From positions 1 to 52,549 of IMG/VR virus record IMGVR_UViG_3300037461_000955: a stretch of DNA of 52,549 bases; one strand, 5' to 3'. The DNA comes from a virus (taxonomy: Duplodnaviria > Caudoviricetes). The first letter of the stretch is position 1. Each line of letters starts with the position of its first letter. Under the pieces are notes generated by a model. The model saw only the letters and a list, made by a program, of their open reading frames with translations, had not been told where the DNA came from and did no database searches. This document shows positions 1,912 through 52,271 of this stretch, piece by piece. The translations under genes and the position numbers were made by a program.

Positions 1912-1915
1912 CGGA

Positions 1916-6600: not shown

Positions 6601-9600
6601 ATGCCTTCCATGAAAAGGACCGTAGAGCCCTTTTTAAGCTTATACGGGACAACTTCACGCATAAGTCTCATCTCTGCTTGCTGACCCAAGACCCTTTTCA
6701 GCGCCTTGAATAAAATGCCAAGTTTGGTGATTCCGTGTCGCTGTCCCCAAGCGCCATATTTACTCAGGCCCCAGTTTCCTTGTAAGGCGTTTGACATAGC
6801 CTGCTCTTTGTCTACCTTCTCGCCTTTGGCCTTTTCAACCTGCGGGTTTACTACGCCAGCCATCAAGTCTCCGCCTAAGCTGGCTATATACTGTCGCAGC
6901 TCATAGGCGAAACGCATCGGGCTTATGCGGTGGAAGAACGGCTTTCCTGTCTTTTTGCTGTGTCCGGCCACACGGGCATTGGCTTTCGGGTCTAATCCGA
7001 TCGAGATAGCAAAATTGGCCAGAGCAGCCAATCTCTCCATTAAGGGATTTCGGTAGGCTTCAGTCAAAAACACCTGCATGTCTTTGTTGGCTTTTTCGCC
7101 TTTTTCGTTTACCCAATAACCTCTGTCCACCTCTTCCATGTCCGGCTTGAGAATCCAGTACCCACCATTCTGCTTGTCCTGGATAGCCCTGACTCCTTTT
7201 GGCGGTGTCGCTACTTTTGCAAGTGTAGACTTGGCAACATGGTGTCCATTTACAACCCGCGTTGCTTGTCGCTGAATCTTCTTTTGGACATAGGCATATA
7301 CTGTTTCTCCCACTCTCAGCTTAACACCATTATTCGGGCGAACCTGAGACGGTGCAAGGTCTCTCGAATCCGCTTTTGGCGTTTCGTACTCGCTTACCTC
7401 GTCCGTGATATCGTAAATATCTGGGTCTTTCTTGTCATACCGTTCGTTTAATTCCTTATTATTCTTCCAAGCCGTGTCCCTGATGTCTCCGCCCTCGTCC
7501 TGCACAAAGTCTCGCAAGTCCGCACTGCCTATTTCATCCCACTCCATTTCCTGTAGTTCATTGGTTTGTTCGTCTATCCAGTAGGCCGTGTTGTTCCATA
7601 CTCCCAAATGGCGTATTTTGCCGGTCTCAGGGTCTGTTATTTCCTCGTAGCGTCCCTGCTGTAATGCCAAGTCCCCCGAATAGATACCAAATGTCCCCTC
7701 GGCAATCAACCGCTTGACGAGTTCCGGCATCCACAGGCCTTCTTCTACACTAGTATCGTTGGTATTATCGTCCTGTTCCGGCTTGTATTTTCCCTTTGAC
7801 GGGTCATACGGCTGTTCGATATTCCCTTCCAGGTCTTCTTCTTCGCCTATGGCGTCCTTGATAGCAGCGGCCTCGGCCTCATCCGTCAACTCCCTGGTGT
7901 TTACTTCCTCATCGGCGACTTTGTTGTCTGGTGCTATAACCTCGATTTCAGGCACAACTGGCTGGACCGGGACATCTTTATTGTCTTCTCGGCTTTCGTC
8001 GGTCTGCATTTCCTGTTCCGCAAGAATGCCTTTGACAGAATCAATGATGGTCCGGCGGTTGGTTGTCCCCATTGCCCCAGTGGTCGCCCTGTTGGGCTTG
8101 CCTTGTTTGGTTTGAGGCGTGGCGATATTCAAGATGTCGGCAATCTTGAGCAGTGTCGCAGTCGGCAATCTATTCAAATCAATGCCATCAATGGTCGGCA
8201 TTGTCTTGTCCTGGTTCATTCCCAATCTTGGCAACAGTTCTAAGCGAGCCTGGTTTAACTTGCCTCCATGTGCCCTTACAGCCGCCGTGATTGCCACAAT
8301 CATTGCTGCTTTATTTGTGGTATCTACATTATGCAACCCGCCTTCTCTGCACGCCTGTCGCAGTGCGCTTTCCGACATATCCACCAGTAGTTTGGCCAAA
8401 TCCCACTCAGACATCTGGAACTTTGCCCGTTCTTTGGGCTTCAGGTTTATTTTGTAGCCCGGGACTCTTTCTTCCTTTGGCGCGAATAATGCTGGAGCCG
8501 GTTTTGCGGGACCGGATACAACCGGTTCAGCCTGTTTTTCTTTTTCCGGCTTAACAAAGAAGCTTTTGGGTGCAGGTAGCGGGTCTGTGGCAGGCACTCT
8601 ACTGGTGGTTACGGCCTGTGCCTGTTTTTCCGATTCCGGTAATGCACTGAATAATTGAGCTTTCTGCTGCATTATCTGTTGCTTTTCCTGAAACGCGGCA
8701 ATGGTCGCTACACCCTTTTCAATTGCCTGTGTTCGGTCCTGATCCATCAACAGCAGGTTTTCATCCAGGGTTTGTTCCACAACCTTTTTGGCGTCAATCT
8801 TGCCCTGTATGTAAGCGTTCCAGGTCTCTTCGCTGACCCAGTCTGGCCCCTTCGTCACAGTCTGTGGCGGCATCGGGCCTACCGTGTCTTTGTCCTCAAA
8901 CAGACCGCCTTCTGCGATCTTTTCGGGCATCCAGGGCTTCAGTTCGCTTGGGAGACTGGTGTCTTCTATTTCAGTTCCGTCTGCTGTCCTGCGTTTCGCC
9001 ACTGCAGGCTCTGTTCCAGGCGTCGGTGTTACCGGCGTGGTTTGCGGGGTTTGCACTTCTTTTGCATTTTGTTCTCCTTGGTAAACAGGTGTATCAGGTG
9101 CTTGTTCTATTTTTACATCATATTTGCCAGCATAGATGTCATTTTCTACCTGCGCAAATAGCGCTTCAATCTTGGCAAGGTCTTCTTTGGTATGTTTCGG
9201 GTTTGTTTTTGCTACTGCCAGCGCGGCTTCTTTCCCCTTTCGCAGCTTCTCCAGCGCCTCTGCCCTGGTAGAGCGACGCGGAGAAGATGTGTCGGCGCCA
9301 ACATTGGCGTTTGTTGTCCCTGCAGGTCCTGGAGGAGGTGCAGGCGTGTTTGGGGCAAACAAATGACCCGCCATAGCGCCACCCGCGCCCTGCGTGCTTT
9401 CCCCGATAGCCCCCATTGCAAATTCTCGCGGTACATCGCTCAACAAGTCTTTCGGGTCATCAAATAATATGCTGTCCCATAAGTTCTCGTTGATCTTTGC
9501 AACGGCTTCTTCTGAGCCACCGATTAAATAACCTTCACCTGCGCCTTTCAGTCCTGACTTGAATAAGCCCCAGGCTGTCTTTCCACCTGCCTTTGCGGCG

Positions 9601-19856: not shown

Positions 19857-21290
19857 TTATTCGGTGATATAGCCCAGCTTGATCTGTTTACCAGGGTTTG
19901 TGCAGACAAAGTTGAAGTAATCAACTGCGGACGCAAACTTGCTATCCGCGTTGTCTTTCTGGGTCAGAATGTCGCCGCCAGTACCAGTCAGCCAGCGATA
20001 CCCACTCCAGCCAGTCGGACGGACAAAAGCGAAATCGGCAGTGTTAATCAAGAAGCCGTTTCCGGTCGGAACCGAGGGCATAGAAGTCAGCATCAACTGT
20101 CTGTCGCCCAGTTGGATGCCAAGCCCTTTATAGCCACCCACCCAGTCCATCGCCTGCATCGTATTGAATCGACGGTCGGCTTTATTGTTCTGGAAGTATT
20201 TCAGGATAGCCCTTGGTGACACGATCATCACATTCGGCTGGCACTGGTATAGGTTTTCCGCCTCAATAAGGACGCTCAAGAGGTTTTCCTCGTCGAGTTC
20301 GTCATTGATGGCATAATACGGGGACTTCAGGACAGAATTGGCTGCAGTGGTGCGGTCAAGATTCCATATGTACTTGAAGTTTTCCAGTGCCTCTGTACCA
20401 TAGAAGTCGCTGGTCGTTGAGGCGCCATCGGAAACCAGGTTCATCAGTCCATTGGGTTCCAAACACCGCACTGTGCCGCTTTCAGCGATTTCGCCATAAG
20501 CGCCTTTCTTGACAATCCAGTCACCGGCATCTACGGTACGGTTAGATGTCCAAGCCTGGCCCAATGTCAATGTGCCCTGGGTTGAAGTCCGTTTATTGCC
20601 TGTGGTCAACGCACTGATTTGCATGTCGTACAAAGCAGTGTCATAGATGCGTTTGGTCAATGATGTGGTGGAAGCCGCCGTAGGTGCCGCATAGAAATTC
20701 AACCACTGATTCGGTTCAAGATACTGTGTATCAAAGAACCCGGCGCCCTTAATGGTCAGCGAATAACCCGACGTGCCGGGTTGCGAGTATACTTTGGCGA
20801 CAATGCCATCACCCGCGCCCATTAACTGTCGTTCAAGGTTAATACGGCTGGACTCCATCAGGCTTTCGACGTGTTCCTGGACCAGGTCGATATACGAACC
20901 TTGTCCGCCTTGAACAGTAGCCAGGGCAGGACCGGTGAACTCCAGATACATATTCTGGTATTTCATCCATTCCCATCCCTGAATCCCCGCGACCGGCGTG
21001 GCGTCAACAAAGCTGCCGCCTTCCTCAAAAGCCCCGACACCTGTAGACCGCTTGGTTTTAAAGTAACCAATAATCCGGCGACCCGTGGCATCCAGTTTGG
21101 CTGCCGAGGATTCAATCAGGCGAGTAAATTTGTTGTCAAAATACAGTGTGTTGTTGAACGCAGGAAGATAGATGTCTTTCAAGACACCGGACAGGGCATT
21201 TAAGCCCGTCGACTGCATGACGTAAGTGCCTTCTGTTTTGGCATTCGCGTTCATGTCATAGCGAGTAACCGCAGTTGTTGGAATAGCCAT
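19857..21290 (-). CDS. Major capsid protein
   Basis: 477 aa after portal and scaffold; VLKDIY, LERQLMGAGDG and EPNGLMNLV motifs typical of HK97-fold capsids. Confidence 0.8.
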   Translation of the reverse strand: MAIPTTAVTRYDMNANAKTEGTYVMQSTGLNALSGVLKDIYLPAFNNTLYFDNKFTRLIESSAAKLDATGRRIIGYFKTKRSTGVGAFEEGGSFVDATPVAGIQGWEWMKYQNMYLEFTGPALATVQGGQGSYIDLVQEHVESLMESSRINLERQLMGAGDGIVAKVYSQPGTSGYSLTIKGAGFFDTQYLEPNQWLNFYAAPTAASTTSLTKRIYDTALYDMQISALTTGNKRTSTQGTLTLGQAWTSNRTVDAGDWIVKKGAYGEIAESGTVRCLEPNGLMNLVSDGASTTSDFYGTEALENFKYIWNLDRTTAANSVLKSPYYAINDELDEENLLSVLIEAENLYQCQPNVMIVSPRAILKYFQNNKADRRFNTMQAMDWVGGYKGLGIQLGDRQLMLTSMPSVPTGNGFLINTADFAFVRPTGWSGYRWLTGTGGDILTQKDNADSKFASAVDYFNFVCTNPGKQIKLGYITE

Positions 21291-22206: not shown

Positions 22207-24378
22207 TTAGTCTGCGGCTTTGTTCTGTGACTTCTGCTCGTCAGACTGTATTTTTGCTATGGCTACATCCGCCTGCACCTGCTGTAACTGTGCGGTCTGT
22301 TTAGCCAGAATCTGTTCCATAGTGTTTCCACGTTGGAAGGCTTCCATCTGGGTCATCTGCTGACCGCTGGCCGCCTGGGTCTGGGAAATGATATTGCTGT
22401 GCATTTGAATGTGCATCAGCATGGCATCGGCCAGTATCTTCCACTGAACCTCACCCGTACCAATATATTCCCAGTACTTATCCAAGAGGAAGTTGGTGTG
22501 CTCCTCAATATGGACTTCATGAATATCAAAGACATTCGGCGGCGGAACAAAGATGTTCTGCGCCAAGTCATCGGCTATCATCTCAAACGGAACGCCCTTT
22601 GTGGACGGAATCCGCTGTACAATGCTTTCGGCGTTGATAAACTCTTTTTGGGCAAATGCCACGTGTTTCGAGTTTAACTGCAGGATATTATCAATTCCGC
22701 CAACATCCATCTGCTTCAAGACATAGTTGCGTACCTGCGGGCTTGCTGGGTCGCCCAGAATGCCTGACTGCCACAGTGCAAATGTCTTGTCAGCCTCTAC
22801 GGCTTTACTGGTCGGCATAGAGCTCCCCATTCGCACCGTAACGCTGAACTTGCCATGCAGTTCGTTTGAATCTATCTTTTCCAGTGTCCAGGCATTGTCT
22901 TTGCCTACCACTGAAATCAACCGCGTTCCGTAGTTGGCCACAGCAAGCGACAGGAGTTGATGTACGACCTTTTCGTCTGCCGCATCTAACCCATCTATCA
23001 TGGGACCGAACTGCTGTTGTGCCGCGTCCTGGAGTGCCAGGAGGCCTTTGGCAGAGTCCACACCTGTCGGCCTGATACCCCGCGATGGTTCCGGGAAGCT
23101 GAAAACCTCGTCAATGCTCCGCTTCACCTCGTCCATGTAGGCAAATATGGCTGACGAGATAGGAACGCCCGGTTCTCTGGTTGGCTTAAAAGTGCCATCA
23201 TACTCAATGATATTGCCGGCGCGGTTGTCAATCTTCTTAAAGTTAATCTTGGAATTCCGTTGCACCATAATGACGCTGTTTCCTACCGCGTCAATGTTGT
23301 CCAGAATCATACTCCTGAGCCGGTTGTATTCTCTCTGCAGCGGCCTGGCCTGCGAGATTCTGGATATAGACCGCACCGTAACCCCAGATAAGGGTATTGG
23401 TGAAGCCGGTACAAATGGCAAATCGCCATGCGGATAGGTTTCGATCGGATATGGCTGGTTCACAGCTATCTCAGTGCCTATCTTTACTGCGTATGCCCCC
23501 AAAGGCATATTCTTATTGCGGACATGCCAGAACTCATAATAGTCCACAAGTTTGTCTTCCAGCAATTCCTGGCCTGTGCGCCCCCCATTAGACGGGGTCA
23601 TTGGTGCAATACGTTCAGTTAAAGTGGAGAAATCAGATAGAATATCCAGTTCAAACGAGCCTGGGTTGTAATCATTGCCTATATCGTCATGGCCTACTTT
23701 CTCTGCCAGTTCCTGACCATATAGCTTTCTAACCTCTCCAACTGTTATTTTCTTGTGATGGATAACCCATTCAAGCCTTCTGAGGTCCTTGGTCCGCCAA
23801 TCAAACACCATTTCCGTATTCGGAATATGTTCTACAATAGCTTCACCCTGGAAATCCGGGTCAAAAGGCGGGCGACTTGGGTCAAAATTCGGGTCTTCGG
23901 GGAATGTATTGTTGCCTGTTACTCTATAATACTGGTCCCACCAAACTTTGCGCCAGCCAATGCCGGCTATGTCATACCACAACACACACGCTTTTCTGGA
24001 AAAATCTTGTCCGTTTATTCTCTGCAGATAAGGAAGGATTTTATCACACGCCTTGGCTGTGGCCTTGTCGGCTTCGTCTGTACTGGTCGGTACAATGTCA
24101 AACTTAGGCATGGCACGGCTTGCCGTGGCAATATCATTAACCACCGCCGGCAGTATCCGGTTGGCTACCACTGGCGTCTGGTATGATTCAGGTAACTGCT
24201 GTATCTGGTTGTTCAGAATCTGGATGTTCTGAAATCCGCACAGATAGGCGATGTTGGCCCGAATCTCAATAGACGCGGCACGCCTGAAGTCATTGAAGGA
24301 CGTTACCTTCTTGTCTATCAGGTCTGCCATTTGCTTGTCGGCAGGTGACATTTCTGGGTTTAGATTAGTTTCCGGCAT
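22207..24378 (-). CDS. Portal protein (P22-like podoviral)
   Basis: 723 aa after terminase; ARPLQREYNRLRS motif and Q-rich barrel C-terminus. Confidence 0.85.
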   Translation of the reverse strand: MPETNLNPEMSPADKQMADLIDKKVTSFNDFRRAASIEIRANIAYLCGFQNIQILNNQIQQLPESYQTPVVANRILPAVVNDIATASRAMPKFDIVPTSTDEADKATAKACDKILPYLQRINGQDFSRKACVLWYDIAGIGWRKVWWDQYYRVTGNNTFPEDPNFDPSRPPFDPDFQGEAIVEHIPNTEMVFDWRTKDLRRLEWVIHHKKITVGEVRKLYGQELAEKVGHDDIGNDYNPGSFELDILSDFSTLTERIAPMTPSNGGRTGQELLEDKLVDYYEFWHVRNKNMPLGAYAVKIGTEIAVNQPYPIETYPHGDLPFVPASPIPLSGVTVRSISRISQARPLQREYNRLRSMILDNIDAVGNSVIMVQRNSKINFKKIDNRAGNIIEYDGTFKPTREPGVPISSAIFAYMDEVKRSIDEVFSFPEPSRGIRPTGVDSAKGLLALQDAAQQQFGPMIDGLDAADEKVVHQLLSLAVANYGTRLISVVGKDNAWTLEKIDSNELHGKFSVTVRMGSSMPTSKAVEADKTFALWQSGILGDPASPQVRNYVLKQMDVGGIDNILQLNSKHVAFAQKEFINAESIVQRIPSTKGVPFEMIADDLAQNIFVPPPNVFDIHEVHIEEHTNFLLDKYWEYIGTGEVQWKILADAMLMHIQMHSNIISQTQAASGQQMTQMEAFQRGNTMEQILAKQTAQLQQVQADVAIAKIQSDEQKSQNKAAD

Positions 24379-24822: not shown

Positions 24823-25533
24823 TTACGCTATAACTACTTTCTCTTCTTGGGGCTCACGTATGGACTGCATTAACTTGTCCATCATGGCTTTATGCTGAAG
24901 ATTAACCTTGGATGGTTTCAAAGCTCTTGCCTCGCGCTTGCTTTTTGGCCATATCAGGCATCCGTGGATAGCCAGCATTGTGGCTATCACATCGTCGTCA
25001 TTCAATCCCTGTGCCGCACCAGTCTTTGTCTTGTCCTCAATGTAGACATAGTTGCCCAGCTCATCTACCGTGTCTAAGCACTGTATCACAACCTCGTTAT
25101 TCTTGAGGACCGACTGGAACTCCCTGATTAAAAGCCATTTGCTGGCCTGTGTGGTCTGGAAACCAAACTTGGTGGAAACATTCGGGCTTTCGTCCAGATG
25201 CTGTTCAGCTTGATAGCACCAGGGGTATTGGTGCACCTGAATCAGGGCATCCTGAACCGCGTTGCCCGGATAATTGGTTTCGCATATAATCAGGGCGTTG
25301 TTGTAATATCTTCCTAACAGGTTGGCATAGCTGCCGGCATCCAAAACCGAACATTTCGCCCGGAATCTTGCTGCCTGCTTGAACGGCATGGTTCTGGTAA
25401 AGACTTCCATGACCGTGTAGTCGCCGCCTACTCCCGTGGCCGTGTCAATACCAATGACATACTCCTCGCCGGCCTCCGGTTTATTCCATATGCTGAAAGG
25501 ACCATCAGGGACAGGAATGAAATCAATCTGCAT
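24823..25533 (-). CDS. Terminase large subunit, RNase H-like nuclease domain (separate gene)
   Basis: YVIGIDTATG, ICETN, DDDVIATMLA; ATG overlaps the upstream TAA (TAATG). Confidence 0.85.
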   Translation of the reverse strand: MQIDFIPVPDGPFSIWNKPEAGEEYVIGIDTATGVGGDYTVMEVFTRTMPFKQAARFRAKCSVLDAGSYANLLGRYYNNALIICETNYPGNAVQDALIQVHQYPWCYQAEQHLDESPNVSTKFGFQTTQASKWLLIREFQSVLKNNEVVIQCLDTVDELGNYVYIEDKTKTGAAQGLNDDDVIATMLAIHGCLIWPKSKREARALKPSKVNLQHKAMMDKLMQSIREPQEEKVVIA

Positions 25534-26498
25534 TAGGCTACTCTCTGTAATATGCCACAATCAGCGCTTTCAAATCCCGCCTCGATGGCCTCTTTGAGTT
25601 TTCTCAGTATTGTCCTGTCAAAAACAGGGTTGCCACCAAAAATAATATATTCGCCTTCAATACGAACCAGTCGTTCGTCTTCCGGCAATGTCTTGGCAAA
25701 TGCCTCTACGGCATCCAGCGGAATATACGGATTCTCTCGCATACCCGCAAATGTTCTGTATACATCCCATCGTTCCGACAGCGCCTTGAGCCATGCTGTT
25801 CCACGCACTGGCGTGGCTGTCATCCACCAGACCCCTCTTGAGTCCACCAGGCGGGCCTCGATTTCAGAGAAGATATCCGTATTCTTCGGCTCCTCGTCTA
25901 TCCAGACCCAGTCAATCTTGGCGCCCTGAAACTTATCTGTGCCCATTTCTGTGGACTTAAAGATAACCTTCCATTCCCGCCCATCACCATGACAAATCCA
26001 CAAATTGTCCTGCTTGTAAAACTTGGTCTTAAACCTTGATGGCAGGAACTTCTCGAACATGGGCCTGTCAATGTCGCGGAGCATAGGATTGTCAAGACCC
26101 ACAATCCATCCCGTGCCTGACGCCGGAAACTTCCGATAAGGGTGTTTGCCTGTTATCGCAAGGCAACACTCATAGGCGCCCATCTCTGACTTTCCGATGC
26201 GGTTGGAACCCAGCGCTACTCTGCCTTTGTATTCTCCGGCTGCCTGAAGGAAATCCCATTGCCAGCCCGGCTTGCCATCTGAACGCCGGTAATACGGTTC
26301 AAACCTATAGAATGGTTCCCTGGACATCTCCAGAATCTGCCGGGCCATCGCTTTGTTTTCCGGCTTTTGGAACCAATCCGGTTGACTGCACAGCGTCTTC
26401 AATTTCACCAAATAATTCCTCATCTGATGCACTGGTAAGATTGCCGGACAGCTCGATGTGCCTTGGTGCTCTAATTCCGTAAATATCTGTGATAGCAT
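25533..26498 (-). CDS. Terminase large subunit, ATPase domain (true start probably about 26348)
   Basis: Walker A GSNRIGKS, Walker B WVWIDEE, motif III MTATP, ENPYI. Confidence 0.88.
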   Translation of the reverse strand: MLSQIFTELEHQGTSSCPAILPVHQMRNYLVKLKTLCSQPDWFQKPENKAMARQILEMSREPFYRFEPYYRRSDGKPGWQWDFLQAAGEYKGRVALGSNRIGKSEMGAYECCLAITGKHPYRKFPASGTGWIVGLDNPMLRDIDRPMFEKFLPSRFKTKFYKQDNLWICHGDGREWKVIFKSTEMGTDKFQGAKIDWVWIDEEPKNTDIFSEIEARLVDSRGVWWMTATPVRGTAWLKALSERWDVYRTFAGMRENPYIPLDAVEAFAKTLPEDERLVRIEGEYIIFGGNPVFDRTILRKLKEAIEAGFESADCGILQRVA

Positions 26499-43155: not shown

Positions 43156-44148
43156 ATGGCTTCGCTTGTACGTGCTGGTAAAAAATGGAAAGTATATTGG
43201 TGTCATAAATTGCAAAGAAGTTCAAGGACGTTTGACAGCAAAACACTTGCCTGTGAATTTATGGCTCAGGAAGAGTATAAGAAAACCAGAAAGGCACACA
43301 CTATATTATACGAGCCAGAGAGTGCTAAATATGCAATATATTTGTCAAGATTTTCAAAAAATACACAAAAATTATACCGGAGTGTGCATGGTGGGTTTTT
43401 TAAGCAACTGCCCGTTCCGGTCAACATGATTTCCAAAGAGCTTGTTCGGTCCTGGATTACCAGACAAACGGTGTCTAATCGAACCATTAACTCAAGATTG
43501 ACAGCCATACTGTCCTATTTCAAATGGGCTGCGGGTGAATTTGGGTTTTGTAATCCAATTCAAGGAATGTCTCTGCTTCGCGAAAGACCGCCTGTTGACC
43601 GGTACTTGTCACTGGAGCAGTTCAGGTCAATCCTGCTGGCTGGAAATGAGATGTTCAGGCAGAGAGCCTTGTTTTTGGCCAATACAGGCTTAAGGGCTTC
43701 CGAATTTTGCAATTTACGGTGGCGGCCCTGCAATACAGACGATGAAAACTATGGTTGGGTGGTTCTGGAGCAGAATCACCTTCAGATAATCGGAAAAGGC
43801 CTTAAGCGTCGCATAGTACCCTTAAACGCTGTTGCTTTAGAGATACTTAAGGCCCTTTTGGGGAAAAGGACTTCAATGTCCCCTCCAAGTGAATTTGTAT
43901 TCCTTTCCAGTGACGGTAAACGGCTGACCAGGTTTGCCCTGAGACAGCAGTTTGCCAAGGTGGCGGAAAAGTCTGGTATCGCCTGCTGTGCTCATGCCAT
44001 GAGGCATCTGTTTACACATCAAGCAGCCGCTTCTGGCCTTCCTTTGGCGTCCATTGCACGAATGCTGGGGCATTCATCCTCCCTGTTGACTGAAAAGGTA
44101 TACAGCCACACAGACCGTTTAAGCGTAGTTCCTGTGGAAATTTTATAG
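43156..44148 (+). CDS. int: Tyrosine integrase
   Basis: TGLRASE (R), GKG (K), HAMRH, LGHSS, VYSH (Y). Confidence 0.93.
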   Translation: MASLVRAGKKWKVYWCHKLQRSSRTFDSKTLACEFMAQEEYKKTRKAHTILYEPESAKYAIYLSRFSKNTQKLYRSVHGGFFKQLPVPVNMISKELVRSWITRQTVSNRTINSRLTAILSYFKWAAGEFGFCNPIQGMSLLRERPPVDRYLSLEQFRSILLAGNEMFRQRALFLANTGLRASEFCNLRWRPCNTDDENYGWVVLEQNHLQIIGKGLKRRIVPLNAVALEILKALLGKRTSMSPPSEFVFLSSDGKRLTRFALRQQFAKVAEKSGIACCAHAMRHLFTHQAAASGLPLASIARMLGHSSSLLTEKVYSHTDRLSVVPVEIL

Positions 44149-44474: not shown

Positions 44475-45062
44475 TCAGGCTATGTTTTTAAGCCAATAAT
44501 CCTCATAGTTTTCCCTGTTTTTAAGAACAGCTTCTCTTGTTTTTGTGAGTGCTTTATTGAAACGGTAAAATGCGGTGGACCTACTGGTTCCGTATTTTTT
44601 GCCGATGGCTTTGAATGTCCACTCGTATACGGTATAAAGCATAAGTATGTCCAATTCCCTGCCTGTTAATTGTGCATCGTGGAGAACCTGTTCCCAGGTC
44701 TCCTTGGCTAAACATTGGTTTAACCATTTTGACAGGCCTGTTTCGTCGATTCGTGTGTCATCCACTGCATCGTGACCATTTGCGTAAAAGCCGTGTTTTT
44801 TGGCTACATACCTTTTACGCATAAAATCACGGCATGAATTGTGCAGGCGTGCATAAATATAACCTCTTGTACCCTTCTGCGGGTTATATTTTTTCATGAG
44901 CCTGCAAATGGAGTAATACAGGTCAGACAGTAATTCCTGGCGGTCTGAATAACACAGCCTGTATCCGGCGTGCTTCATGGCGTGGTAAGCCATAGGCATG
45001 AATTGTTCGGCTTCATTTCGTTGTTGGTCTGTAAGCCTGAATTGGATTTCTTTTCTTCCCAT
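44475..45062 (-). CDS. Sigma-70 family RNA polymerase sigma factor
   Basis: DRQELLSD...KYNPQKG...CRDFMRK (region 2); LTGRELDIL...TFKAIGKKYGTSR (region 4). Confidence 0.75.
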   Translation of the reverse strand: MGRKEIQFRLTDQQRNEAEQFMPMAYHAMKHAGYRLCYSDRQELLSDLYYSICRLMKKYNPQKGTRGYIYARLHNSCRDFMRKRYVAKKHGFYANGHDAVDDTRIDETGLSKWLNQCLAKETWEQVLHDAQLTGRELDILMLYTVYEWTFKAIGKKYGTSRSTAFYRFNKALTKTREAVLKNRENYEDYWLKNIA

Positions 45063-45071
45063 AGAACCTTT

Positions 45072-45746
45072 CTATGCGAAGGTATCCAGGGCGTATGCCG
45101 GTATATTCAGGACAAAATCGCATGTTTTGTGGGTTTTCAGTGTACGCATCCAGCGCGTTACCATTGCCACCATAAATCCCGCCTCAATGTTGGCACAATA
45201 GATGGTAGAACGTGCGGTGCATGGGGCTGCATAGGCTTCTTCCTGTGAAAAAAGCGTGGTAGGGTAATATTCCTTGTTTTGTGAAACCGCAATAATGCGG
45301 CATGATTCAGCCCCCATTCTGCCGTCTACGAATAATATACAGACATCTTTGAAGGTTTCGAACAGCTCCTGTCTTCCCTTGATGGAGTCTATACAGGAAA
45401 GCACAACATCTGGTGTCTTGATATTGCGTTTTTCAGCATTCCAAACCTGCTGGTTAATCATGCAGGGCCTGGCCGTAACCTTGGCCTGGCTGTTCATGCT
45501 GGAAATCATGTCCTTCACCACATTGACCTTGTGTTTACCAATGTCCTGTTCAAGCCAGCCTTGCGATGCCAGATTGCCCTCTTCAATGGTGTCATGGTCA
45601 TACATGGTGATATTTTCTGCTCCTGCTGCCGCCAGTTGTATTGCCACCTGTTTTCCTACTGCGCCCACTCCGGCCACCAGAAAGTCCAGGTTGGCCATGA
45701 AAAGCGGGTTTATAATGGAGGATTGTCTTGAATATCTCGCGTCCAT
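45072..45746 (-). CDS. ThiF/MoeB/E1-like adenylyltransferase
   Basis: RYSRQ, GVGAVG, DHDTIEEGNLASQ, DIGKHKV, DGRMGAE and candidate catalytic Cys in PCTAR. Confidence 0.9.
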   Translation of the reverse strand: MDARYSRQSSIINPLFMANLDFLVAGVGAVGKQVAIQLAAAGAENITMYDHDTIEEGNLASQGWLEQDIGKHKVNVVKDMISSMNSQAKVTARPCMINQQVWNAEKRNIKTPDVVLSCIDSIKGRQELFETFKDVCILFVDGRMGAESCRIIAVSQNKEYYPTTLFSQEEAYAAPCTARSTIYCANIEAGFMVAMVTRWMRTLKTHKTCDFVLNIPAYALDTFA

Positions 45747-45961
45747 ACTGTCCCTTTCAGGTGTATAGTTATGGGTGTTTGTTTGAGGGGACAATCTGTA
45801 AATAATTTGCCCCATGCAGGGTCTGTGTGCTTGAAGGTCTTTAGGCTGTGTTCGTGTCCGTTACTATAAGGATGAAGACACTTAGCGCCATTAGCGCCAT
45901 CTATTTCCCCGTCAGCATAGGCAAATGGACAGTCGTGGCAATTTTCGGTTTCCCATCTCAT
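45710..45961 (-). CDS. Small Cys-rich phage protein inside the Ubl cassette
   Basis: NCHDCPF...CLHP...DCPLK; start overlaps the JAB stop. Confidence 0.5.
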   Translation of the reverse strand: MRWETENCHDCPFAYADGEIDGANGAKCLHPYSNGHEHSLKTFKHTDPAWGKLFTDCPLKQTPITIHLKGTVWTRDIQDNPPL

Positions 45962-46911
45962 ATAGTCGCCCCCTGTGTGTCGTAATACATCATCAGTCCT
46001 ACAACCTCTTGTGGCAATGAATCCAGTCCCTGTGACTGTAGAAGGCCGATACAATGATTGAACTGGTCTCCATCAATGTCTCCGCTGGAATACATGCATC
46101 GCAACAGGTAGACCTGGTAATCCAGTTGGTGGTTTTCTACATATTCTAACTGTTTACTCTCGGTGCTTTTTATATCACTGCTTTCAATTTTGTCTTCTGC
46201 TGGTTTTGCTGGTTTTGCTTCTTTAATTGTTTTTTCAATTTTTTCTTCTGCTTTTTTGTTAGCTTTTTTAGTTTGCTCCGCGCTTTTTGGCGGGTTGCAT
46301 AGAAAAAACCGGTTTTCTTTCATTGGTTGATCTGGGTTCCAATCATAATTGTATTCATCCCACAGGCCATATGCGCCGTTGTAGGTGTTTTTGGCATAGG
46401 CGAATTCGCTGACGTTTTCGGTAAACTCCTTGTCCCATGCATCGTGCATTGGTCCCGCTTCTGCCCAATCCACCTCAACAGGCACTTCAGATTCCATGTA
46501 ATGCTTGCTTTGGCCGATTTGAGTGCGGAGCCGGCAATAAAACTGCCCATTTTTGGGCAGTATCAACATTACCGCCCAGTCGGATTTGCCGAAATTGGTC
46601 TTGAAAGTGGTTTCATCTGTGCCGGACGGTCCTGCAACGCCCTGTGGATGAGTGTGAATCCAGATGCGGAGGAATTGATTCATCTGAAGACCTTGTTTGC
46701 AAAGGTTGGCAGCTAAGTCATTTACGCCGTCGTCATCGAATTCCGTTGACGACATACTGACTTTCTGTTTTGGTACAATAATATCTTTGACATAAAGAGG
46801 CGAATCTAAGTCTGTAATCCCCAGACAGCCGACTTCGTTTTTGGTTCTTTCATTGAGCCACATCAATTTACAGTAAGCATAAGGCGATAGGCATAAACTG
46901 ATTTTTTTCAT
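45958..46911 (-). CDS. JAB/MPN+ metallo-isopeptidase
   Basis: NEVG (E), IWIHTHP...PSGTD = HxH-x7-S-x2-D. Confidence 0.88.
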   Translation of the reverse strand: MKKISLCLSPYAYCKLMWLNERTKNEVGCLGITDLDSPLYVKDIIVPKQKVSMSSTEFDDDGVNDLAANLCKQGLQMNQFLRIWIHTHPQGVAGPSGTDETTFKTNFGKSDWAVMLILPKNGQFYCRLRTQIGQSKHYMESEVPVEVDWAEAGPMHDAWDKEFTENVSEFAYAKNTYNGAYGLWDEYNYDWNPDQPMKENRFFLCNPPKSAEQTKKANKKAEEKIEKTIKEAKPAKPAEDKIESSDIKSTESKQLEYVENHQLDYQVYLLRCMYSSGDIDGDQFNHCIGLLQSQGLDSLPQEVVGLMMYYDTQGATI

Positions 46912-46922
46912 GGTAATCCTTT

Positions 46923-48077
46923 CTATTCCGCGCAGTGGCGGCATATAATAGTGTTATTTGCCAGGTCAATGTCAATACACTCTAGGCATGTTATGTTTCC
47001 GCAGGGACAGGTTATGTGCTGGTGCGTGCTTTTTCCGCATACCGAGCAGGTTTTGATGCAATCGTAACACGTGCCCTGTTCGGTTAAGCAATACCGACAA
47101 ACACGCTTTCCACAGATTGTGCAATATGTAAGATGGTTTTCTGGTGTTTGTGCACCACATCGCTCGCATTCCTTTATGCAATCTATGCAATAAGGATTGT
47201 CTGTGGTTGTTGATCGGGCATCGAATGTTATGTAAATTGCATGGTCTTCGCATACAAATTTACCACATCGTACGCATGTCTGTCGTGTTATTCTGCCACA
47301 AAAGCATTTAGCCGGCAGCCAGTTTTCCAGCTTGATGTATGGATTGGTTCCATAATTTGACAAGATATCTTCGGTCAAGCAAAACGCACCAACAAATGCG
47401 CCCTGCTGGAGCTGCTTGGTTACAAATGCGGCATGGTCTCCAAAGCACAGTCTGTTGCTGCTGACGTGCGGATGAAAAGTGTAGTGTGTTTTGTCGTACA
47501 CTTCTTTACCGTCTGGTCTGATTTTGATGTTTTCACAGCTTGGTGAATTGCACATATCGTACTCAATAATCATTCTCCCAAGGGATATATCCGTGTCAGT
47601 GGTTGGTTCCCGCAGAACGATTTCATTGGTTCTATGTCTAATCAAGCAGGCGAGAAGGTTGTTATTTGCAGAACTGTCATTTCTGCATTTTATAGAACGC
47701 GGTATTACCTCTAAGGATGCGCCTCGATTCAGCAGCCTGAAAATGTCTTTGTAGATTAAAGTTTCTGGCCTGACGCCTGTCTGTGCAGCGCATGCCGTGA
47801 CTTGTATACGGGTTTGGATATTCTGGATTTGTTTGTGACACGCTGAATACAAGTTAGCTATATCGCCTTTTAATTCAAGCAGGTTAGCTTCTCGGATTGG
47901 TTTTTGTATCAGTGTTCGCAGCAGAGTTCCTTTGAATTGACGGGCTTGCTGGTTAAATACGGCCAACATTTGTTTTAAGCCTGTGTCCTCTGTTACCGGC
48001 TTAATCCAATATCTTTGCAATACGCGCCGGAGAAGACTCATATTATGTCTTACATTGTCTTTTGTGATTAATGGCAT
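46923..48077 (-). CDS. Prokaryotic E2-like conjugating protein fused to a multi-zinc-finger tail
   Basis: FHPHVSSNRLCFGD resembles the UBC HPN(V/I)...C motif; about 10 CxxC/CxxH pairs at the C-terminus. Confidence 0.7.
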   Translation of the reverse strand: MPLITKDNVRHNMSLLRRVLQRYWIKPVTEDTGLKQMLAVFNQQARQFKGTLLRTLIQKPIREANLLELKGDIANLYSACHKQIQNIQTRIQVTACAAQTGVRPETLIYKDIFRLLNRGASLEVIPRSIKCRNDSSANNNLLACLIRHRTNEIVLREPTTDTDISLGRMIIEYDMCNSPSCENIKIRPDGKEVYDKTHYTFHPHVSSNRLCFGDHAAFVTKQLQQGAFVGAFCLTEDILSNYGTNPYIKLENWLPAKCFCGRITRQTCVRCGKFVCEDHAIYITFDARSTTTDNPYCIDCIKECERCGAQTPENHLTYCTICGKRVCRYCLTEQGTCYDCIKTCSVCGKSTHQHITCPCGNITCLECIDIDLANNTIICRHCAE

Positions 48078-48181
48078 ATGATTTCCTTTCTGGATTGTCC
48101 CAATTTAAGAACCAGGAAGCCGCAGTCCCCGCACCTTTTTTTGGCGAGTGCAAGGGACTGGGCTTGGGTGACGTGACGGCT

Positions 48182-48412
48182 TTACTTCTGGTTGCCGACT
48201 GTCTTGACCGGAGTGACCAGCACTTGGTCGCCGTCGTTCAGTTCAGTGTCATGGCGGGCAACCATATCGCTGTTGAGGCGGATACGGTAATCTTCGCTGC
48301 GGAATCCCTGGATGTTGTATTGGAGGAATTCTCCGAGCGTGGTGCCTTCGTCACAAGGAATGGTTCTGGAAAAACCGCCACCGTGATTGTTTACAAATTC
48401 GATGTTCAACAT
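48182..48412 (-). CDS. Ubiquitin-like (MoaD/ThiS beta-grasp) protein
   Basis: 76 aa; EGTTLGEF...IRLN...ELNDGDQVLVTPVKTVG-NQK. Confidence 0.8.
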   Translation of the reverse strand: MLNIEFVNNHGGGFSRTIPCDEGTTLGEFLQYNIQGFRSEDYRIRLNSDMVARHDTELNDGDQVLVTPVKTVGNQK

Positions 48413-48471
48413 TGAATGCTTCCCTTTCTATATAGGGTGTTAAATGGTATTGATGCCGGGACGCTCCCAGG

Positions 48472-48798
48472 CTATCTGTTAAGTCTTTTAAGGTACATTT
48501 GTACTTGTGGGATTTGCGGAAATAGTTCTTTTTCTTCTGTTTCCAGGATTAAATATTTCGCCAACGCAGCGTTATCAGTTAACTTTCTTAGTGCTTCCAT
48601 GCCGCCGTTTTTAAGGTGCGGGTATGTTTGTATATCGCGAAGTCGGTAGTAGCCGCTGCTCCACTCTGACGACAAGTCGCTTCTGGTAAATCCAAGGGAT
48701 GCCAGAAATTCATGGAGTTCTTTTTTTTCATTATAATTATTGAATTTTATTGCTACCCACTGTATAGGTGATTGGGTACAGGCAGAATTGTTTGGCAT
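48472..48798 (-). CDS. Hypothetical early protein
   Basis: ORF with GAAGGG RBS. Confidence 0.55.
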   Translation of the reverse strand: MPNNSACTQSPIQWVAIKFNNYNEKKELHEFLASLGFTRSDLSSEWSSGYYRLRDIQTYPHLKNGGMEALRKLTDNAALAKYLILETEEKELFPQIPQVQMYLKRLNR

Positions 48799-48890
48799 AT
48801 GTTTTCCCTTCTATCATGTTTACCGCGCTCTGTATTCAAAAAGCCGGAACCCATTTAAGCATTCCGGCTTTCGGAGGAGGTGATGGTTTT

Positions 48891-49250
48891 TTATTCTATG
48901 TGCATTGTTTCCCTGGCTTGGTAAGGGAATAGAGACATTGCTCTTTCTAAAATAGTTTTTATGGCCCATTTGGCTTTGTCACGGTTCGTTGTGTAATGGT
49001 CTGGCAGTCTATCCCCGAATCGACGTTGTGCCACCCAGCACAAGTCTTCAGCCAGTTCTTCCGCTGTATTGTTTATTATTGCACAGTTTCCTTTTCGGAA
49101 GTCATCATCGGGCATTGTCCTGAGTCCGGTATGTGAGGTACGCGTACCATCTTCTTTGATGTATTGGCATATTATAATGAGCCTTCCGATCATTATCCCA
49201 TCATAGACTTTGTTACATGTGTCTTTAAATCGTACAAAGTAGAATTTCAT
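48891..49250 (-). CDS. Hypothetical early protein
   Basis: ORF with GAAAGGAA RBS, followed by a terminator-like hairpin at about 48838-48871. Confidence 0.55.
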   Translation of the reverse strand: MKFYFVRFKDTCNKVYDGIMIGRLIIICQYIKEDGTRTSHTGLRTMPDDDFRKGNCAIINNTAEELAEDLCWVAQRRFGDRLPDHYTTNRDKAKWAIKTILERAMSLFPYQARETMHIE

Positions 49251-49503
49251 ATCTGTTTCCTTTCTTATTCGCCAAATATTGCGATATATCTGTTAGGTTT
49301 GGCTCTTATTCGCCAGGCATTGCGATATATTTACTGGTTTTCTTTGGATATACTTTCCATAATCAGGACATCTCCTAATACAAGGCGTCTGCGCTGCAAT
49401 GGACCTCCATTAAGCTGGAGGGGCTTGGCTCTGAATTTTTTGGCTACTTGGCTTGGTGTAAGTCCGGCCAGTGTGTTTTTAATGTTGATTGTCAGTGTGA
49501 TGC

Positions 49504-49860
49504 TCATAAAGTTCCTTTCCTGATTTTTACCTGTAACGTCTTAACGCCCCATTTCAGGGCTTCCCTGTGTGTATCAAAATACACGTCGAGACGGTTTCCC
49601 TTGATGGCGCCGCCTCTGTCTTTAACCTGGACATTCCCATAGCCAGGTATTTGGACCTCAGTGCCGAATGGAAGGCTTTTATCTGCTGCGACAAACCTGT
49701 CACCCGGCTTGATTTTGTATCCTGAAGCCGTAGTGTAGCCCCAGCCGTATTTGCCGCAACACTTGGTACATGGACAGTAGGCAGTAACCTTCATTGTCCG
49801 TGTTTCGTATTCATTGCATCCAGACATAAAAAATATGGTTGCTAACATAAATATTTGCAT
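49504..49860 (-). CDS. 3D-domain (lytic transglycosylase-like) lipoprotein
   Basis: Lipobox MSGC; VTAYCPC, TASG, VAAD, LPFGT, DRGGAIKGNRLDVYF. Confidence 0.88.
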   Translation of the reverse strand: MQIFMLATIFFMSGCNEYETRTMKVTAYCPCTKCCGKYGWGYTTASGYKIKPGDRFVAADKSLPFGTEVQIPGYGNVQVKDRGGAIKGNRLDVYFDTHREALKWGVKTLQVKIRKGTL

Positions 49861-50039
49861 GGAAAACCTCCGGTAGTATCGTGTGATTGTGTGATTTCCT
49901 GTTTTAAGGTAAAAGGGAGGATATATTCTCTGGCGGGCAGGCCCGTGGCTACGATTGATTTAAGCCCACGTCGCCAGATTGTAGCATAAAAAGCCAGGCG
50001 ACCCAGACCATCCAGGTCGCCTGACCGAAAGGAAGTACG

Positions 50040-50675
50040 TTAGAATTGATAGCTGGGGTCTTTGATGTTCTCTTCCCAGCCATCATATTGTGCTTCGCGG
50101 AAGTCAATGTTTCGAGGCCTGTGTCGCCTTAGCATTATCGCTTTGGCTTCATCCAGCGCTTCCAGGAATTTGGTTATGTTATTATTGTGCTGGATTGTAA
50201 TCCAATCGTTGTCCAGCACATGCCTGACAACATAATCCTTGTCAAACGGGTGATTGATGGGCGAAACAATCCTGATTGCATCCCAAGTGTGAAGGCCATG
50301 ACCGGGTATGCAAATGTCTGCACTGTCATCATTGACAATGCAGTCTGTAATGGACATTGTTTGGGCTATCATCCACATGGGGTCGTATTCCCCCAGTCCC
50401 CTGTGGTCTTCATTTTCCCGCCCAGGCGCTAAGCGGTATCTATCCATGTAAGGCACTTCTACTTTGGTTAGAGTGCCATCTTTGTAGGTGAACAGCCAGT
50501 TTTGGCCGTCCAGTGAAAGTTCCATTCGATTCTCGTCCAGAAGGTACGCCTCTGAAGCAAGAATCGGTATTACTTCTTCTTCCAGGCCTTCTGATTTACA
50601 GATTGCCTGGAAAAACTCTCTGTTTTCAACTTCTGTGGACATATTGTCCAGAAAGTCACTGATTTTTGTAATCAT
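50040..50675 (-). CDS. Hypothetical acidic early protein
   Basis: 211 aa with GAAAGGAAG RBS. Confidence 0.6.
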   Translation of the reverse strand: MITKISDFLDNMSTEVENREFFQAICKSEGLEEEVIPILASEAYLLDENRMELSLDGQNWLFTYKDGTLTKVEVPYMDRYRLAPGRENEDHRGLGEYDPMWMIAQTMSITDCIVNDDSADICIPGHGLHTWDAIRIVSPINHPFDKDYVVRHVLDNDWITIQHNNNITKFLEALDEAKAIMLRRHRPRNIDFREAQYDGWEENIKDPSYQF

Positions 50676-50756
50676 AGTTAATCTTCCTTTCTAAAGATAT
50701 GCAGGCCCCTTTAGAGGGCCAGTCACCCTAAAGAGGCCTGATTGATATGCTTTTGG

Positions 50757-51425
50757 TTACTTGGTTTGTCCAGGAATGATTTTGGACAGACCAAGATTGA
50801 TCATGCTGCCACTGACCCAGCCACTCATGGCATATGTTACGTATTCATGCAACGACTCATCATACGTATCGAGCGTGCCTGTGAATTTGGGCGACGTCGC
50901 TTTAGGCTGATTTTTATTCTCACGCATTTGGCCTTTACCAATAGCTATTTTGTTATTGATAAAGATGGTTTTCCAGGGCCTCTGCGTCTGGAATTTGAGA
51001 TTGAAACCTACCAGTTTCTTCACACCTTTGTCGTCCGTGGTTATGACAGGCCATGCAGACGACTGATGTTGAATACCACCGATAGTAAAGGCGCCTTTGT
51101 ACGGTGCACCTTTGCCACTGTTATCTGGATTGATAAAGAACAAACCGATTTCTAGGCCATCCAGTGTTTTAAGTTTTTCATATGTCGTGACTCTTGTTGC
51201 CGGTTTGGCAGCAGGTGCCTGTGCTGTATCTGCAGGCAACAACGCCTGCAAGACTGCAGCTTCTGTCATTATCATTGGCACCATCCCTGTTGGACAAGCC
51301 ATGTTGTTTTTGTACCACTGGCCCCCGATAAAGGCATAATTGCCTGATGGCAACTGCGAGCCTTCTTTGCCAGTGAAATCGAATGAAAAGCCGTCTGTGA
51401 TTGTGATTTGTTTTTGTGTTGACAT
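50757..51425 (-). CDS. Putative SSB-like protein with a duplicated module
   Basis: Two similar units, KGAPYKGAFTI...SSAW and ATSPKFTGTL...MSGW. Confidence 0.5.
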   Translation of the reverse strand: MSTQKQITITDGFSFDFTGKEGSQLPSGNYAFIGGQWYKNNMACPTGMVPMIMTEAAVLQALLPADTAQAPAAKPATRVTTYEKLKTLDGLEIGLFFINPDNSGKGAPYKGAFTIGGIQHQSSAWPVITTDDKGVKKLVGFNLKFQTQRPWKTIFINNKIAIGKGQMRENKNQPKATSPKFTGTLDTYDESLHEYVTYAMSGWVSGSMINLGLSKIIPGQTK

Positions 51426-51614
51426 TGTTTGTTTCCTTTCTAAAATGTATTTGTTTTTGTGTTGTTGCCCCATCTGGCTGGACCACCCAGTCATTTGGGG
51501 TATTTTTTTTATTTTTCATATTAAATTAACTTATCAAGGCGACCTGCCCTGCGCAAGCAAAGGGCAGTCGCCATATACTCATTTATTTTGTTTCTTCTAA
51601 TATTATTGTTGATA

Positions 51615-51651
51615 AAAACCCGTCCCCGCCAGTTGGGCGCGGGGGCGGGTT
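51615..51651 (-). terminator. Intrinsic terminator
   Basis: ACCCGCCCC...GGGGACGGG followed by TTTTT. Confidence 0.65.
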
Positions 51652-51658
51652 ATATGGT

Positions 51659-51949
51659 TTATATTGTGACTGACGCGTACAATGCCTTGAGACACGGCTC
51701 AAGACAGGCCTGTGAGTGTTCATAGTCCTCAGCCGTTGTGAAGGCTTCGCGGACTTTTGCTTCCAGTTGAGGGCATTGTGCTTTTGCCGCGTCTGCATAT
51801 GCCGGGTATCCATCCAGCAAATACAGCACGTTGACCAATACCATTCCTGCGAACGCCCAATCTTTGGCATTAAGCTTCTTGTAGGCGATGTTTAGGCCGT
51901 CATAGAGACGGCTATCAAAAACATCTTGTGATTCAATTACATTATTCAT
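51659..51949 (-). CDS. Hypothetical early protein
   Basis: ATG behind GAAAGGAAG. Confidence 0.6.
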   Translation of the reverse strand: MNNVIESQDVFDSRLYDGLNIAYKKLNAKDWAFAGMVLVNVLYLLDGYPAYADAAKAQCPQLEAKVREAFTTAEDYEHSQACLEPCLKALYASVTI

Positions 51950-51975
51950 GACTGTCTTCCTTTCAGTAGAGATTG

Positions 51976-52018
51976 ACATTAAAAAGGCCTGGCACCCACA
52001 GTAGATGCCAGGCCATAA
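51976..52018 (-). repeat. Duplicate terminator = unoccupied intron target site
   Basis: 43-bp identity to the rejoined exons (52299-52303 plus 1874-1911). Confidence 0.85.
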
Positions 52019-52052
52019 AGGCTAATTCATAAATCCCCCAACGTGCCCCGAA

Positions 52053-52271
52053 TTAAGCCTTCAGGGTTTCGGCTGCCATGATTGTTTCCAGCATGGGCTT
52101 GATGTCCTGCGGACGGAGACGGATGCCGTAGTTGTGCCAGGCGCCCGTCTTGTCTCTGTAGGACCGGCTAACGGTACAGTTGCCATCATCCCACAAAGCC
52201 AAGGAGAAATCCTTATGAACAGGGTGTTGATACTTCGCAACCGGCTTAGATTTTGCCTGTGTGCTTTCCAT
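52053..52271 (-). CDS. Small putative ssDNA-binding (PC4/whirly-like) protein
   Basis: LALW...TVSRSYRDKTGAW...LRPQDI. Confidence 0.55.
   Translation of the reverse strand: MESTQAKSKPVAKYQHPVHKDFSLALWDDGNCTVSRSYRDKTGAWHNYGIRLRPQDIKPMLETIMAAETLKA

Follow-up and report, generated by a model that had tools for sequence, protein, structure and literature searches.

A candidate ubiquitin-like conjugation cassette among the early genes of a temperate tailed phage, with relatives in other viral genomes and in Planctomycetota

The 52,549-base stretch of DNA analyzed here (the window) is the whole of IMG/VR virus record IMGVR_UViG_3300037461_000955, a linear record with a CheckV completeness estimate of 68%, and nearly all of its long open reading frames (ORFs) lie on the minus strand. 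At 45072-48412 on that strand stands a cassette of four genes encoding a ubiquitin-like protein (Ubl; 76 aa, 48182-48412), an E2-like protein (384 aa, 46923-48077), a JAB/JAMM metallopeptidase (JAB; 317 aa, 45958-46911), and a ThiF-type E1 (224 aa, 45072-45746). They run in the same direction with tight spacing, and the ORF map bears out an earlier, sequence-only reading of this DNA that had described them as co-oriented and closely packed. Family alignments, together with a GAAAGG motif 6 nt upstream in each case, led us to move the start of the JAB ORF (45958-46944) to M12 (46911) and that of the E1 ORF (45072-45815) to M24 (45746). An 83-aa Cys/His-rich ORF (45710-45961, minus strand) fills the gap between JAB and E1; it has no Pfam match and no GAAAGG motif, and no homologue of it was found in the 33 cellular and 47 viral loci described below, the JAB and E1 genes abutting in homologous cassettes. 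Because it has neither relatives nor the motif, we regard it as a doubtful gene.

The Ubl is a predicted pro-protein with a β-grasp fold of the ThiS/MoaD type (Pfam ThiS, 26.1 bits against a cutoff of 22.5) that ends in VG-NQK, Gly73 being followed by the three-residue tail NQK. Among 22 aligned sequences (alignment A5), G73 is present in at least 90% and is followed by 0-10 variable residues, with G13 and F14 invariant; the Ubl profile matched MoaD, SAMP2, and ThiS weakly in the PDB. The JAB protein matches Prok-JAB at E=3.8e-4, under the Pfam cutoff, and eight PADLOC models, seven of them JAB models (the best at 3.3e-5) and one an E1-E2 model. In the 20-sequence alignment A7 its E37, H97, S107, and D110 never vary, H99 is kept in at least 90% of sequences, and all nine PDB matches of its profile at E<=1 are Rpn11-type JAMM enzymes; a long, Lys/Glu-rich, helical extension follows at the C terminus. 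The E1 is a minimal protein (Pfam ThiF, E=2.3e-26) with an RxxRQ motif, a GxGxxG loop, and Cys199 (45219-45221) in the motif CT[AS][RK]ST. Members of its family are 215-225 aa long and consist of a single adenylation domain. In alignment A6, C199 is the sole invariant cysteine, alongside invariant R27, Q31, G49, G51, G54, D143, D164, and R166, and the nearest solved relatives by profile search of the PDB are ThiF, PaaA, UBA7, MccB, and MoeB. The position of Cys199 may resemble that of the catalytic cysteine of Atg7-type E1s, in the crossover-loop region and without a separate Cys domain. The sequence-only reading had named these proteins as a 76-aa β-grasp protein, a JAB peptidase with intact E/HxH/S/D residues, and a ThiF/E1 with GxGxxG and a PCTAR cysteine, and all three assignments stand on the above-cutoff ThiS match, the invariant or nearly invariant JAB residues, and the ThiF match with its invariant Cys199.

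None of the models of Pfam, NCBIfam, PHROGs, or PADLOC matched the 384-aa protein, and a word-index homologue search returned only the protein itself. Phmmer, run exhaustively over 1.84 billion representatives, detected 416 relatives at E<=1e-3, typically 330-360 aa long and matched over residues 150-345, and this is a family of more than 400 E2-like members that no curated library covers. The window protein carries the HPHV-x5-C motif to which the sequence-only reading had drawn attention, as H202-P203-H204-V205-x5-C211, with C211 seven residues past HPH. Across 39 homologues, G167, H202, P203, C211, G213, and W253 do not vary, and H204 is found in at least 90%. HPH or HPN followed by Cys is kept in 40 of 42 cellular and viral homologues, HPN occurring in two viral ones (L044 and L046), and some viral family members read FHPNINFQGNVCLG, which is near the classical ubiquitin-conjugating (UBC) motif. 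The L046 homologue, in which 'ifhpninfqgnvclg' aligns with 'VYHPNIDLEGNVCLN' of UBE2M, gave 14 weak PDB matches; nine are E2s, and all of these fall at the HPN...C motif. The E2-family profile searched against PDB sequences returned zinc-finger and coiled-coil matches only and no E2, and an hhalign comparison of the E1 profile with the E2-core profile showed no relation, as expected.

Structural modeling points to a UBC fold in the center of this protein. A full-length AlphaFold2 model built on the family alignment (pLDDT 80.5) has a helical region (6-117), a β-meander (121-188), two helices (213-240), and a zinc-finger region, with the HPH...C211 loop between the meander and the two helices. 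When Foldseek candidates for the full model were realigned, the Tsg101 UEV domain gave Z 8.2 over 132 aligned residues (rmsd 3.6) and 21 ubiquitin-conjugating (E2) chains gave Z 5.0-6.1. When the full-length model was used in an unbiased VIA search, helical bundles matching residues 10-102 dominated the results, and residues 100-262 were therefore modeled alone (pLDDT 79.3, pTM 0.75). The core model shows what defines a UBC domain, an α/β fold with an N-terminal helix, a four-stranded meander, and two C-terminal helices. Searched against 48,161 representative chains, it placed Ube2S at the top (Z 7.4, rmsd 3.6, 119 residues aligned), the top rows being E2s at Z 7.4-5.5, and, by entry titles, almost all of the 50 rows listed were E2, UEV, or RWD proteins, including BubB, Cap2, and CdnG-E2. 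The uniformity of this list, despite the moderate Z-scores, leads us to assign the 384-aa protein as a predicted UBC-fold E2. The sequence-only reading had named the lack of a UBC fold in this protein as one finding that would refute it; the core search, whose rows are almost all E2, UEV, or RWD chains, did not bring that refutation.

Three parts can be delimited in the predicted E2. Residues 1-117 (47727-48077) form a helical domain, with AlphaFold2 helices at 6-25, 32-58, 63-100, and 105-117 and only generic helical-bundle matches; residues 118-257 (47307-47726) form the catalytic core, with H202-P203-H204 and Cys211 encoded at 47445-47474; and the C-terminal array (46926-47306) holds about 12 Cys/His pairs, predicted zinc ribbons and B-box/RING-like fingers, whose CxxC columns are conserved in alignment A1. 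All three lie on the minus strand. The zinc finger that the sequence-only reading had placed in this protein is thus seen in the family alignment as a conserved series of CxxC pairs. In profile searches of the PDB the array weakly matched the Midline-1 B-box, the RNF4 and TRIM21 RING domains, FYVE, and ZZ; Pfam found Siva in nine and zf-B_box in two of 68 family members; and Foldseek returned LIM tandem fingers.

The cassette is owned by the phage: it sits in a virus record with portal, capsid, and terminase genes, shares the GAAAGG motif with its neighbors, and is syntenic with two viral relatives, L043 and L039. GAAAGG stands 4-10 nt ahead of 11 ORF starts in 45062-52271, versus four starts in the remaining 45 kb, and those 11 include the starts of Ubl (10 nt before the ATG), E2, JAB M12, E1 M24, and a sigma factor. 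Its distribution suggests a block-specific translation or regulatory signal. The sigma factor gene, of extracytoplasmic function (ECF) sigma-70 type (44475-45062, minus strand; TIGR02937, 48.6 bits versus a cutoff of 42.9), adjoins E1 in the same unit; no homologue of it was found in the flanks of the other loci (33 cellular, 47 viral). The sequence-only reading had placed the cassette just upstream of a sigma factor, in an early/middle unit of the phage's own with the orientation and ribosome-binding-site style of its neighbors. The first point agrees with the gene map, and the second holds because the strand and the block-specific GAAAGG are common to the cassette and its neighbors.

A strong terminator-like hairpin (50026-49992) lies upstream of the cassette-bearing block. 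The spacer between Ubl and E2 contains a stem-loop (48117-48165, minus strand) that is a possible attenuator; its predicted RNA fold of -34 kcal/mol is not significant (z = -1.93), 7 of 200 shuffled sequences folding equally well, and it was missed by a terminator scan. RNA-library contigs from two studies (X4 and X6) match the window at 100% identity and span just the Ubl gene (48168-48458 and 48192-48445), and contigs of a third library cover the sigma gene. These contigs give a weak hint of transcription. The X4 and X6 contigs stop near the Ubl stop codon, before the stem-loop, and the message for the Ubl may be short and abundant. The lack of RNA-library contigs over other parts of the cassette is no evidence of silence, and the small word shares in runs X2-X6 are none of habitat.

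Among the window proteins, 46 were scanned against PHROGs and 23 against Pfam. PHROGs matches define a structural module at ~10-27 kb, with a major head protein (19857-21290), a portal (22207-24378), and a large terminase in two overlapping minus-strand ORFs (24823-25560 and 25533-26498); the ATPase part of the subunit matches phrog_2 positions 266-467 and the nuclease part positions 474-604. The split could be a frameshift, a sequencing error, or real. Further matches are an Erf annealing protein, NinG, an exonuclease, a DnaB helicase, a primase, and a tyrosine integrase (43156-44148, plus strand). Because it combines portal, head, terminase, and replication genes with a tyrosine integrase, the window phage is a temperate tailed phage. 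The early block also encodes a small 3D-domain (lytic-transglycosylase-like) protein (49504-49860, minus strand), a homologue of which lies at the matching place in L043. No tRNA genes were found in the window. Near its left end are a reverse transcriptase of the diversity-generating retroelement (DGR) type (443-1444, minus strand; phrog_1423, E=9.9e-97; RVT_1, 1.1e-42) and a 2367-aa protein (3642-10745, minus strand) with an N-terminal staphylococcal-nuclease-like domain (PF00565, 1.2e-4; phrog_452 endonuclease) and an unannotated remainder. A search for the DGR template and variable repeats found no direct repeat of at least 40 nt within positions 1-4500, and the element may be cut by the contig end.

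The INPHARED phage collection, searched by nucleotide BLAST (blastn) with the cassette, gave no match, and viral scans with the single E1 sequence or the HPHV peptide pattern (alignment A2) confirmed no relatives. The sequence-only reading had proposed a survey of viral databases for this synteny. An E1 profile scan of IMG/VR yielded 47 loci: E2, JAB, and E1 occur in the same order in 20 of the 47, with a Ubl detected in 16 of these. In the 14 viral loci examined, the co-oriented flanks are rich in genes for SbcC-like proteins, helicases, DnaB, primase, exonuclease, single-stranded DNA-binding protein, RusA, HNH proteins, and RNA ligase. Both L043 and L039, relatives of the window phage, carry homologues of its DnaB, its exonuclease, and a 95-aa protein downstream of the cassette, and L043 additionally has homologues of the 3D-domain protein and a 211-aa protein upstream. 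Three carriers, 168-180 kb in size, possess direct terminal repeats and are estimated to be 100% complete, and a PF00589 integrase was found in one of the five large viral records searched. The window E1 is at most 43% identical to any other E1. In a rough FastTree phylogeny of uncertain root, cellular E1s are nested inside the viral diversity and the window E1 forms a deep branch.

Some large phages carry enlarged cassettes (L035/L036, 1396-6675; L047/L048, ~312-6669) with a Ubl of 221-245 aa, E2-like proteins of 710-798 aa, and JAB ORFs of 466-654 aa; the L035 Ubl has two ThiS-type matches. On a 138-kb viral contig (L046, 518-6762), two tandem E2-like paralogues, one with the canonical FHPNINFQGNVCLG, are followed by a 1333-aa JAB-containing ORF, and no Ubl was detected at this locus. 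At the other 27 of the 47 loci (L053, L054, and L057-L081) there is a related minimal E1 (24-32% identity), but neither an E2-like nor a Ubl gene was detected; L063, among these, has a weak JAB match (E=8.7e-4). They may represent another phage-borne E1 system with other partners. An AAA+ ATPase of ~500 aa (phrog_8638) is an occasional accessory of the cassette, encoded within a few kilobases of it at four of 33 cellular and two of 47 viral loci (L005, 396-1886; L008, 2350-3852; L027; L034; L042, 8899-10470; L045, 9322-10863); no ORF of at least 45 aa in the window matched it at E<=1e-3.

A scan of one genome per prokaryotic species located 33 cellular loci, 32 in metagenome-assembled genomes (MAGs) of Planctomycetota and one in a MAG of Nitrososphaerota. 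The four genes occur in the same order in 20 of them, most of the others being cut by contig ends. Their flanks contain integrases, a serine recombinase with GP88, a transposase, Cas3/Cas5 (L010), and AAA+/NERD genes, and no recognizable virion genes were found within 6 kb. Five MAGs hold one to four cassette copies each; one G002 copy is split and the sole G004 copy has an internal stop. No homologue of the window portal was found in these five. The host of the window phage is probably a member of the Planctomycetota, as judged only from the cellular relatives of its cassette. The cassette is best described as an unnamed Ubl-conjugation operon family of Planctomycetota and their phages, marked by an E2 with its own zinc-finger array and a minimal E1.

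We compared the cassette with known systems. The order Ubl-E2-JAB-E1 in four separate genes is that of BilABCD (Bil), an ISG15-like antiphage operon of bacteria that guards its host by tagging a structural protein of the phage (PMC10557695, PMC11601596, 10.1101/2023.09.04.556158). Type II BilA has a conserved Gly followed by up to nine residues, after which glycine the operon's JAB was shown to cut (PMC10557695), much as the Ubl here has a conserved Gly and a tail of 0-10 residues; in both systems there is no separate ubiquitin ligase (E3), and the E2 is presumed to pick the targets. In contrast, the Bil E1 is a large IAD-AAD-CYS protein (PMC11601596), whereas in the one here a single adenylation domain makes up all 224 aa; Type II Bil has an E2 of the 'CEHH' type, whereas ours combines HPH-x6-C with a zinc-finger array and an N-terminal helical domain; and Bil is chromosomal and found in defense islands, whereas this cassette stands in phage replication modules. 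Bil-related models in PADLOC and NCBIfam matched neither the Ubl nor the E2. A Ubl, an E2, and a JAB are found in Bub too, along with a small E1 of the homodimeric type that has no Cys domain (PMC11601596). The structural neighbors of the E2 core include its BubB (9eav_D; Z 6.2 over 103 aligned residues), and the E1 profile picks up the E1 domain of BubCD at 1.9e-12. Unlike the separate genes here, Bub (6E/DUF6527) has Ubl-E2 and JAB-E1 fusions in Type I, an E2-E1 fusion in Type II, a DUF6527 serine protease, and oxyester (Ser) chemistry without catalytic Cys, whereas C199 of the E1 and C211 of the E2 are invariant in this family; DUF6527 had no match among the 23 proteins scanned against Pfam.

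The PRTRC system of plasmids and ICEs (NCBIfam TIGR03735-03742), or operon type 6d of Iyer et al. 2006 (PMC1779556), likewise unites on a mobile element a Ubl, an E2-like protein, a JAB, and a small ThiF-family E1. However, the E1 here scores 39.2 bits against a PRTRC_ThiF cutoff of 144.75, the PRTRC A, B, and C models had no match, the Ubl, E2, and JAB matched no PRTRC model at all, and no ParB partner was seen. The type 6d E2 has no histidine before its Cys (PMC1779556), whereas HP is invariant, as HPH or HPN, before the Cys here. The E1 and JAB have similarities to CBASS Cap2/Cap3: PADLOC E1-E2 models match the E1 down to 2.5e-13, and Cap3 is the best NCBIfam match of the JAB, at 19 bits versus a cutoff of 200. 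Cap2, however, is an E2-E1 fusion that conjugates a CD-NTase, whereas the cassette keeps its genes apart and has a Ubl of its own, and scans of window proteins against Pfam, PHROGs, and PADLOC showed no CD-NTase. Domain architecture and curated score cutoffs rule out membership of Bil, Bub, PRTRC, and Cap2/Cap3. The classical eukaryotic and archaeal E2s share with the predicted E2 the UBC fold and HP[HN]-x6-7-C between the β-meander and helix 2, whereas the family differs from them in having no Pfam UQ_con match, His for Asn in most members, and a fused 117-residue helical domain and about six zinc sites. In the literature searched, including passages of PMC10557695, PMC11601596, PMC11601603, PMC1779556, and 10.1101/2023.09.04.556158, we came across no description of a Ubl-E2-JAB-E1 cassette encoded by a phage, nor of this E2 family.

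We judge it probable, without being confident, that the cassette is the complete, intact Ubl-conjugation cascade of a temperate phage, expressed with its early and replication genes and most likely serving the phage during infection. In each of the four proteins the catalytic residues are kept with little or no variation among homologues, and use during infection is suggested because the cassettes are co-oriented within replication/recombination modules, including those of large, complete genomes that yielded no tyrosine integrase. Homology and conserved residues suggest a scheme of four steps. JAB would trim the NQK tail from the 76-aa pro-Ubl and expose Gly73; the minimal, probably homodimeric, ThiF-type E1 would adenylate Gly73, possibly with a thioester on Cys199; the Ubl would be handed to Cys211 of the E2, seven residues past an HPH that would be the counterpart of the classical HPN; and the target lysine would be chosen, no E3 being encoded separately, by the helical N-terminal domain of the E2 together with its B-box/RING-like array at the C terminus. 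JAB might also reverse the mark. The system would thereby tag host or phage proteins for takeover or counter-defense, rather than being cargo for lysogeny only.

Several observations weigh against this reading. The cassette lies 0.9 kb from the integrase in the window, and the neighborhood of an integrase is a typical site of prophage cargo or defense genes. The lack of an integrase in four of the five large records is a result for tyrosine integrases, no search for serine recombinases having been made there. The islands that hold the Planctomycetota copies carry integrases, a transposase, a serine recombinase, or Cas genes, which also fits a mobile defense system, and in the five cassette-bearing MAGs a phrog_2 terminase was found on other contigs only and on no cassette contig. 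RNA-library contigs can come from contaminating DNA. As to the enzymes, the E1 has neither a separate Cys domain nor a ubiquitin-fold domain, and Pfam UQ_con and Prok-E2_A-E had no match at E<=1 in the window E2 or 68 family members, nor in 12 viral homologues. The best PDB match of the full E2 model by Foldseek was the E2 Ube2w at a weak E=0.028, the core model reached a weak E=0.11, and structural Z-scores were moderate, at 8.2 at most.

Part of this evidence bears on an unlikely, if serious, alternative, that the cassette is Bil-like antiphage or superinfection-exclusion cargo that a prophage expresses to tag the structural proteins of competing phages and so protect the lysogen, in the way that Bil acts from bacterial chromosomes. 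Its appeal lies in the BilABCD gene order (PMC10557695), the temperate nature of the window phage with an integrase less than 1 kb away, the location of cellular copies in mobile islands, one beside Cas3/Cas5 (L010), with several copies per genome, and the AAA+ ATPase that accompanies some cassettes. Yet the cassette is co-oriented with early genes and shares their translation motif, rather than forming a separate opposite-strand moron; it stands among replication/recombination genes in the 14 viral loci examined; it is carried by complete genomes of 168-180 kb with direct terminal repeats, and no tyrosine integrase was found in four of five large records; neither its Ubl nor its E2 matches any PADLOC model; and its E1 lacks the IAD-AAD-CYS architecture of Bil.

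It is improbable that the system is a non-conjugating sulfur carrier or serves some other adenylation, the E1 thiocarboxylating the Ubl for a thio-cofactor, nucleoside, or DNA base and the 384-aa protein being a zinc-binding accessory. The best model scores of the Ubl and E1 are indeed ThiS/MoaD and ThiF/MoeB, and the cassettes do lie in nucleic-acid-metabolism neighborhoods, but the scores fall far under the ThiF/MoeB equivalog cutoffs. A ThiF/MoeB equivalog is ruled out at a best score of 76 bits versus a cutoff of 159 and with no biosynthetic neighbors. No cysteine desulfurase, rhodanese, ThiG/H, or MoaE family was found among the window proteins scanned against Pfam and PHROGs, in line with the sequence-only reading, which had noted that thiamine, molybdopterin, and cysteine biosynthesis genes are missing nearby. 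The E1 also lacks CxxC pairs, C199 being its sole invariant Cys, and a UBC fold with HPH...Cys together with an always-linked JAMM peptidase are hallmarks of conjugation.

Still less credit goes to a role in virion or replisome assembly, in which the Ubl and JAB would act on the phage's own proteins as a chaperone, by transient internal tagging, as proposed for λ TAPI/TAPK. A Ubl and JAB pairing has been documented bioinformatically in phage tail-assembly clusters (PMC1779556), but the cassette here lies outside the structural module, includes an E1 and an E2 that are absent from TAPI/TAPK, and showed no sequence similarity to tail-assembly PHROGs. A decaying relic lately captured from a host island and functionless in the phage is very improbable: cellular copies exist and some are broken, as in G002 and G004, but none of the four window ORFs is broken and each retains its full set of catalytic residues, the cassette is conserved in 20 viral loci, and the deep branching of the window E1, at no more than 43% identity to any other, argues against recent capture.

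If the 'offensive' reading given below is correct, this would be the first virus-encoded complete cascade of E1, E2, Ubl, and deubiquitinase in the prokaryotic world and would parallel the exploitation of ubiquitination by eukaryotic viruses. To our knowledge, bacterial Ubl conjugation (CBASS Cap2, Bil, and Bub) has so far been studied as host antiphage immunity, a picture that a conserved cascade in the replication modules of many phages would reverse. The E1, at 224 aa, would be near the smallest size able to load an E2; the UBC-fold E2 fused to RING/B-box-like zinc fingers is a possible one-protein E2/E3; and the 76-aa Ubl with its removable tail would make for a compact, testable system. 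Planctomycetota are already noted for eukaryote-like ubiquitin genes. We suggest, tentatively and as a possibility that we hold short of likely, that Planctomycetota phages run an 'offensive' Ubl system in which an early E2 with a zinc-finger E3-like module tags host proteins, for instance those of defense, replication, or repair, and so disables or redirects them, and that the chromosomal copies descend from phage copies. The E2 family is tied to the Planctomycetota, and its targets would reveal what the phage gains from protein tagging.

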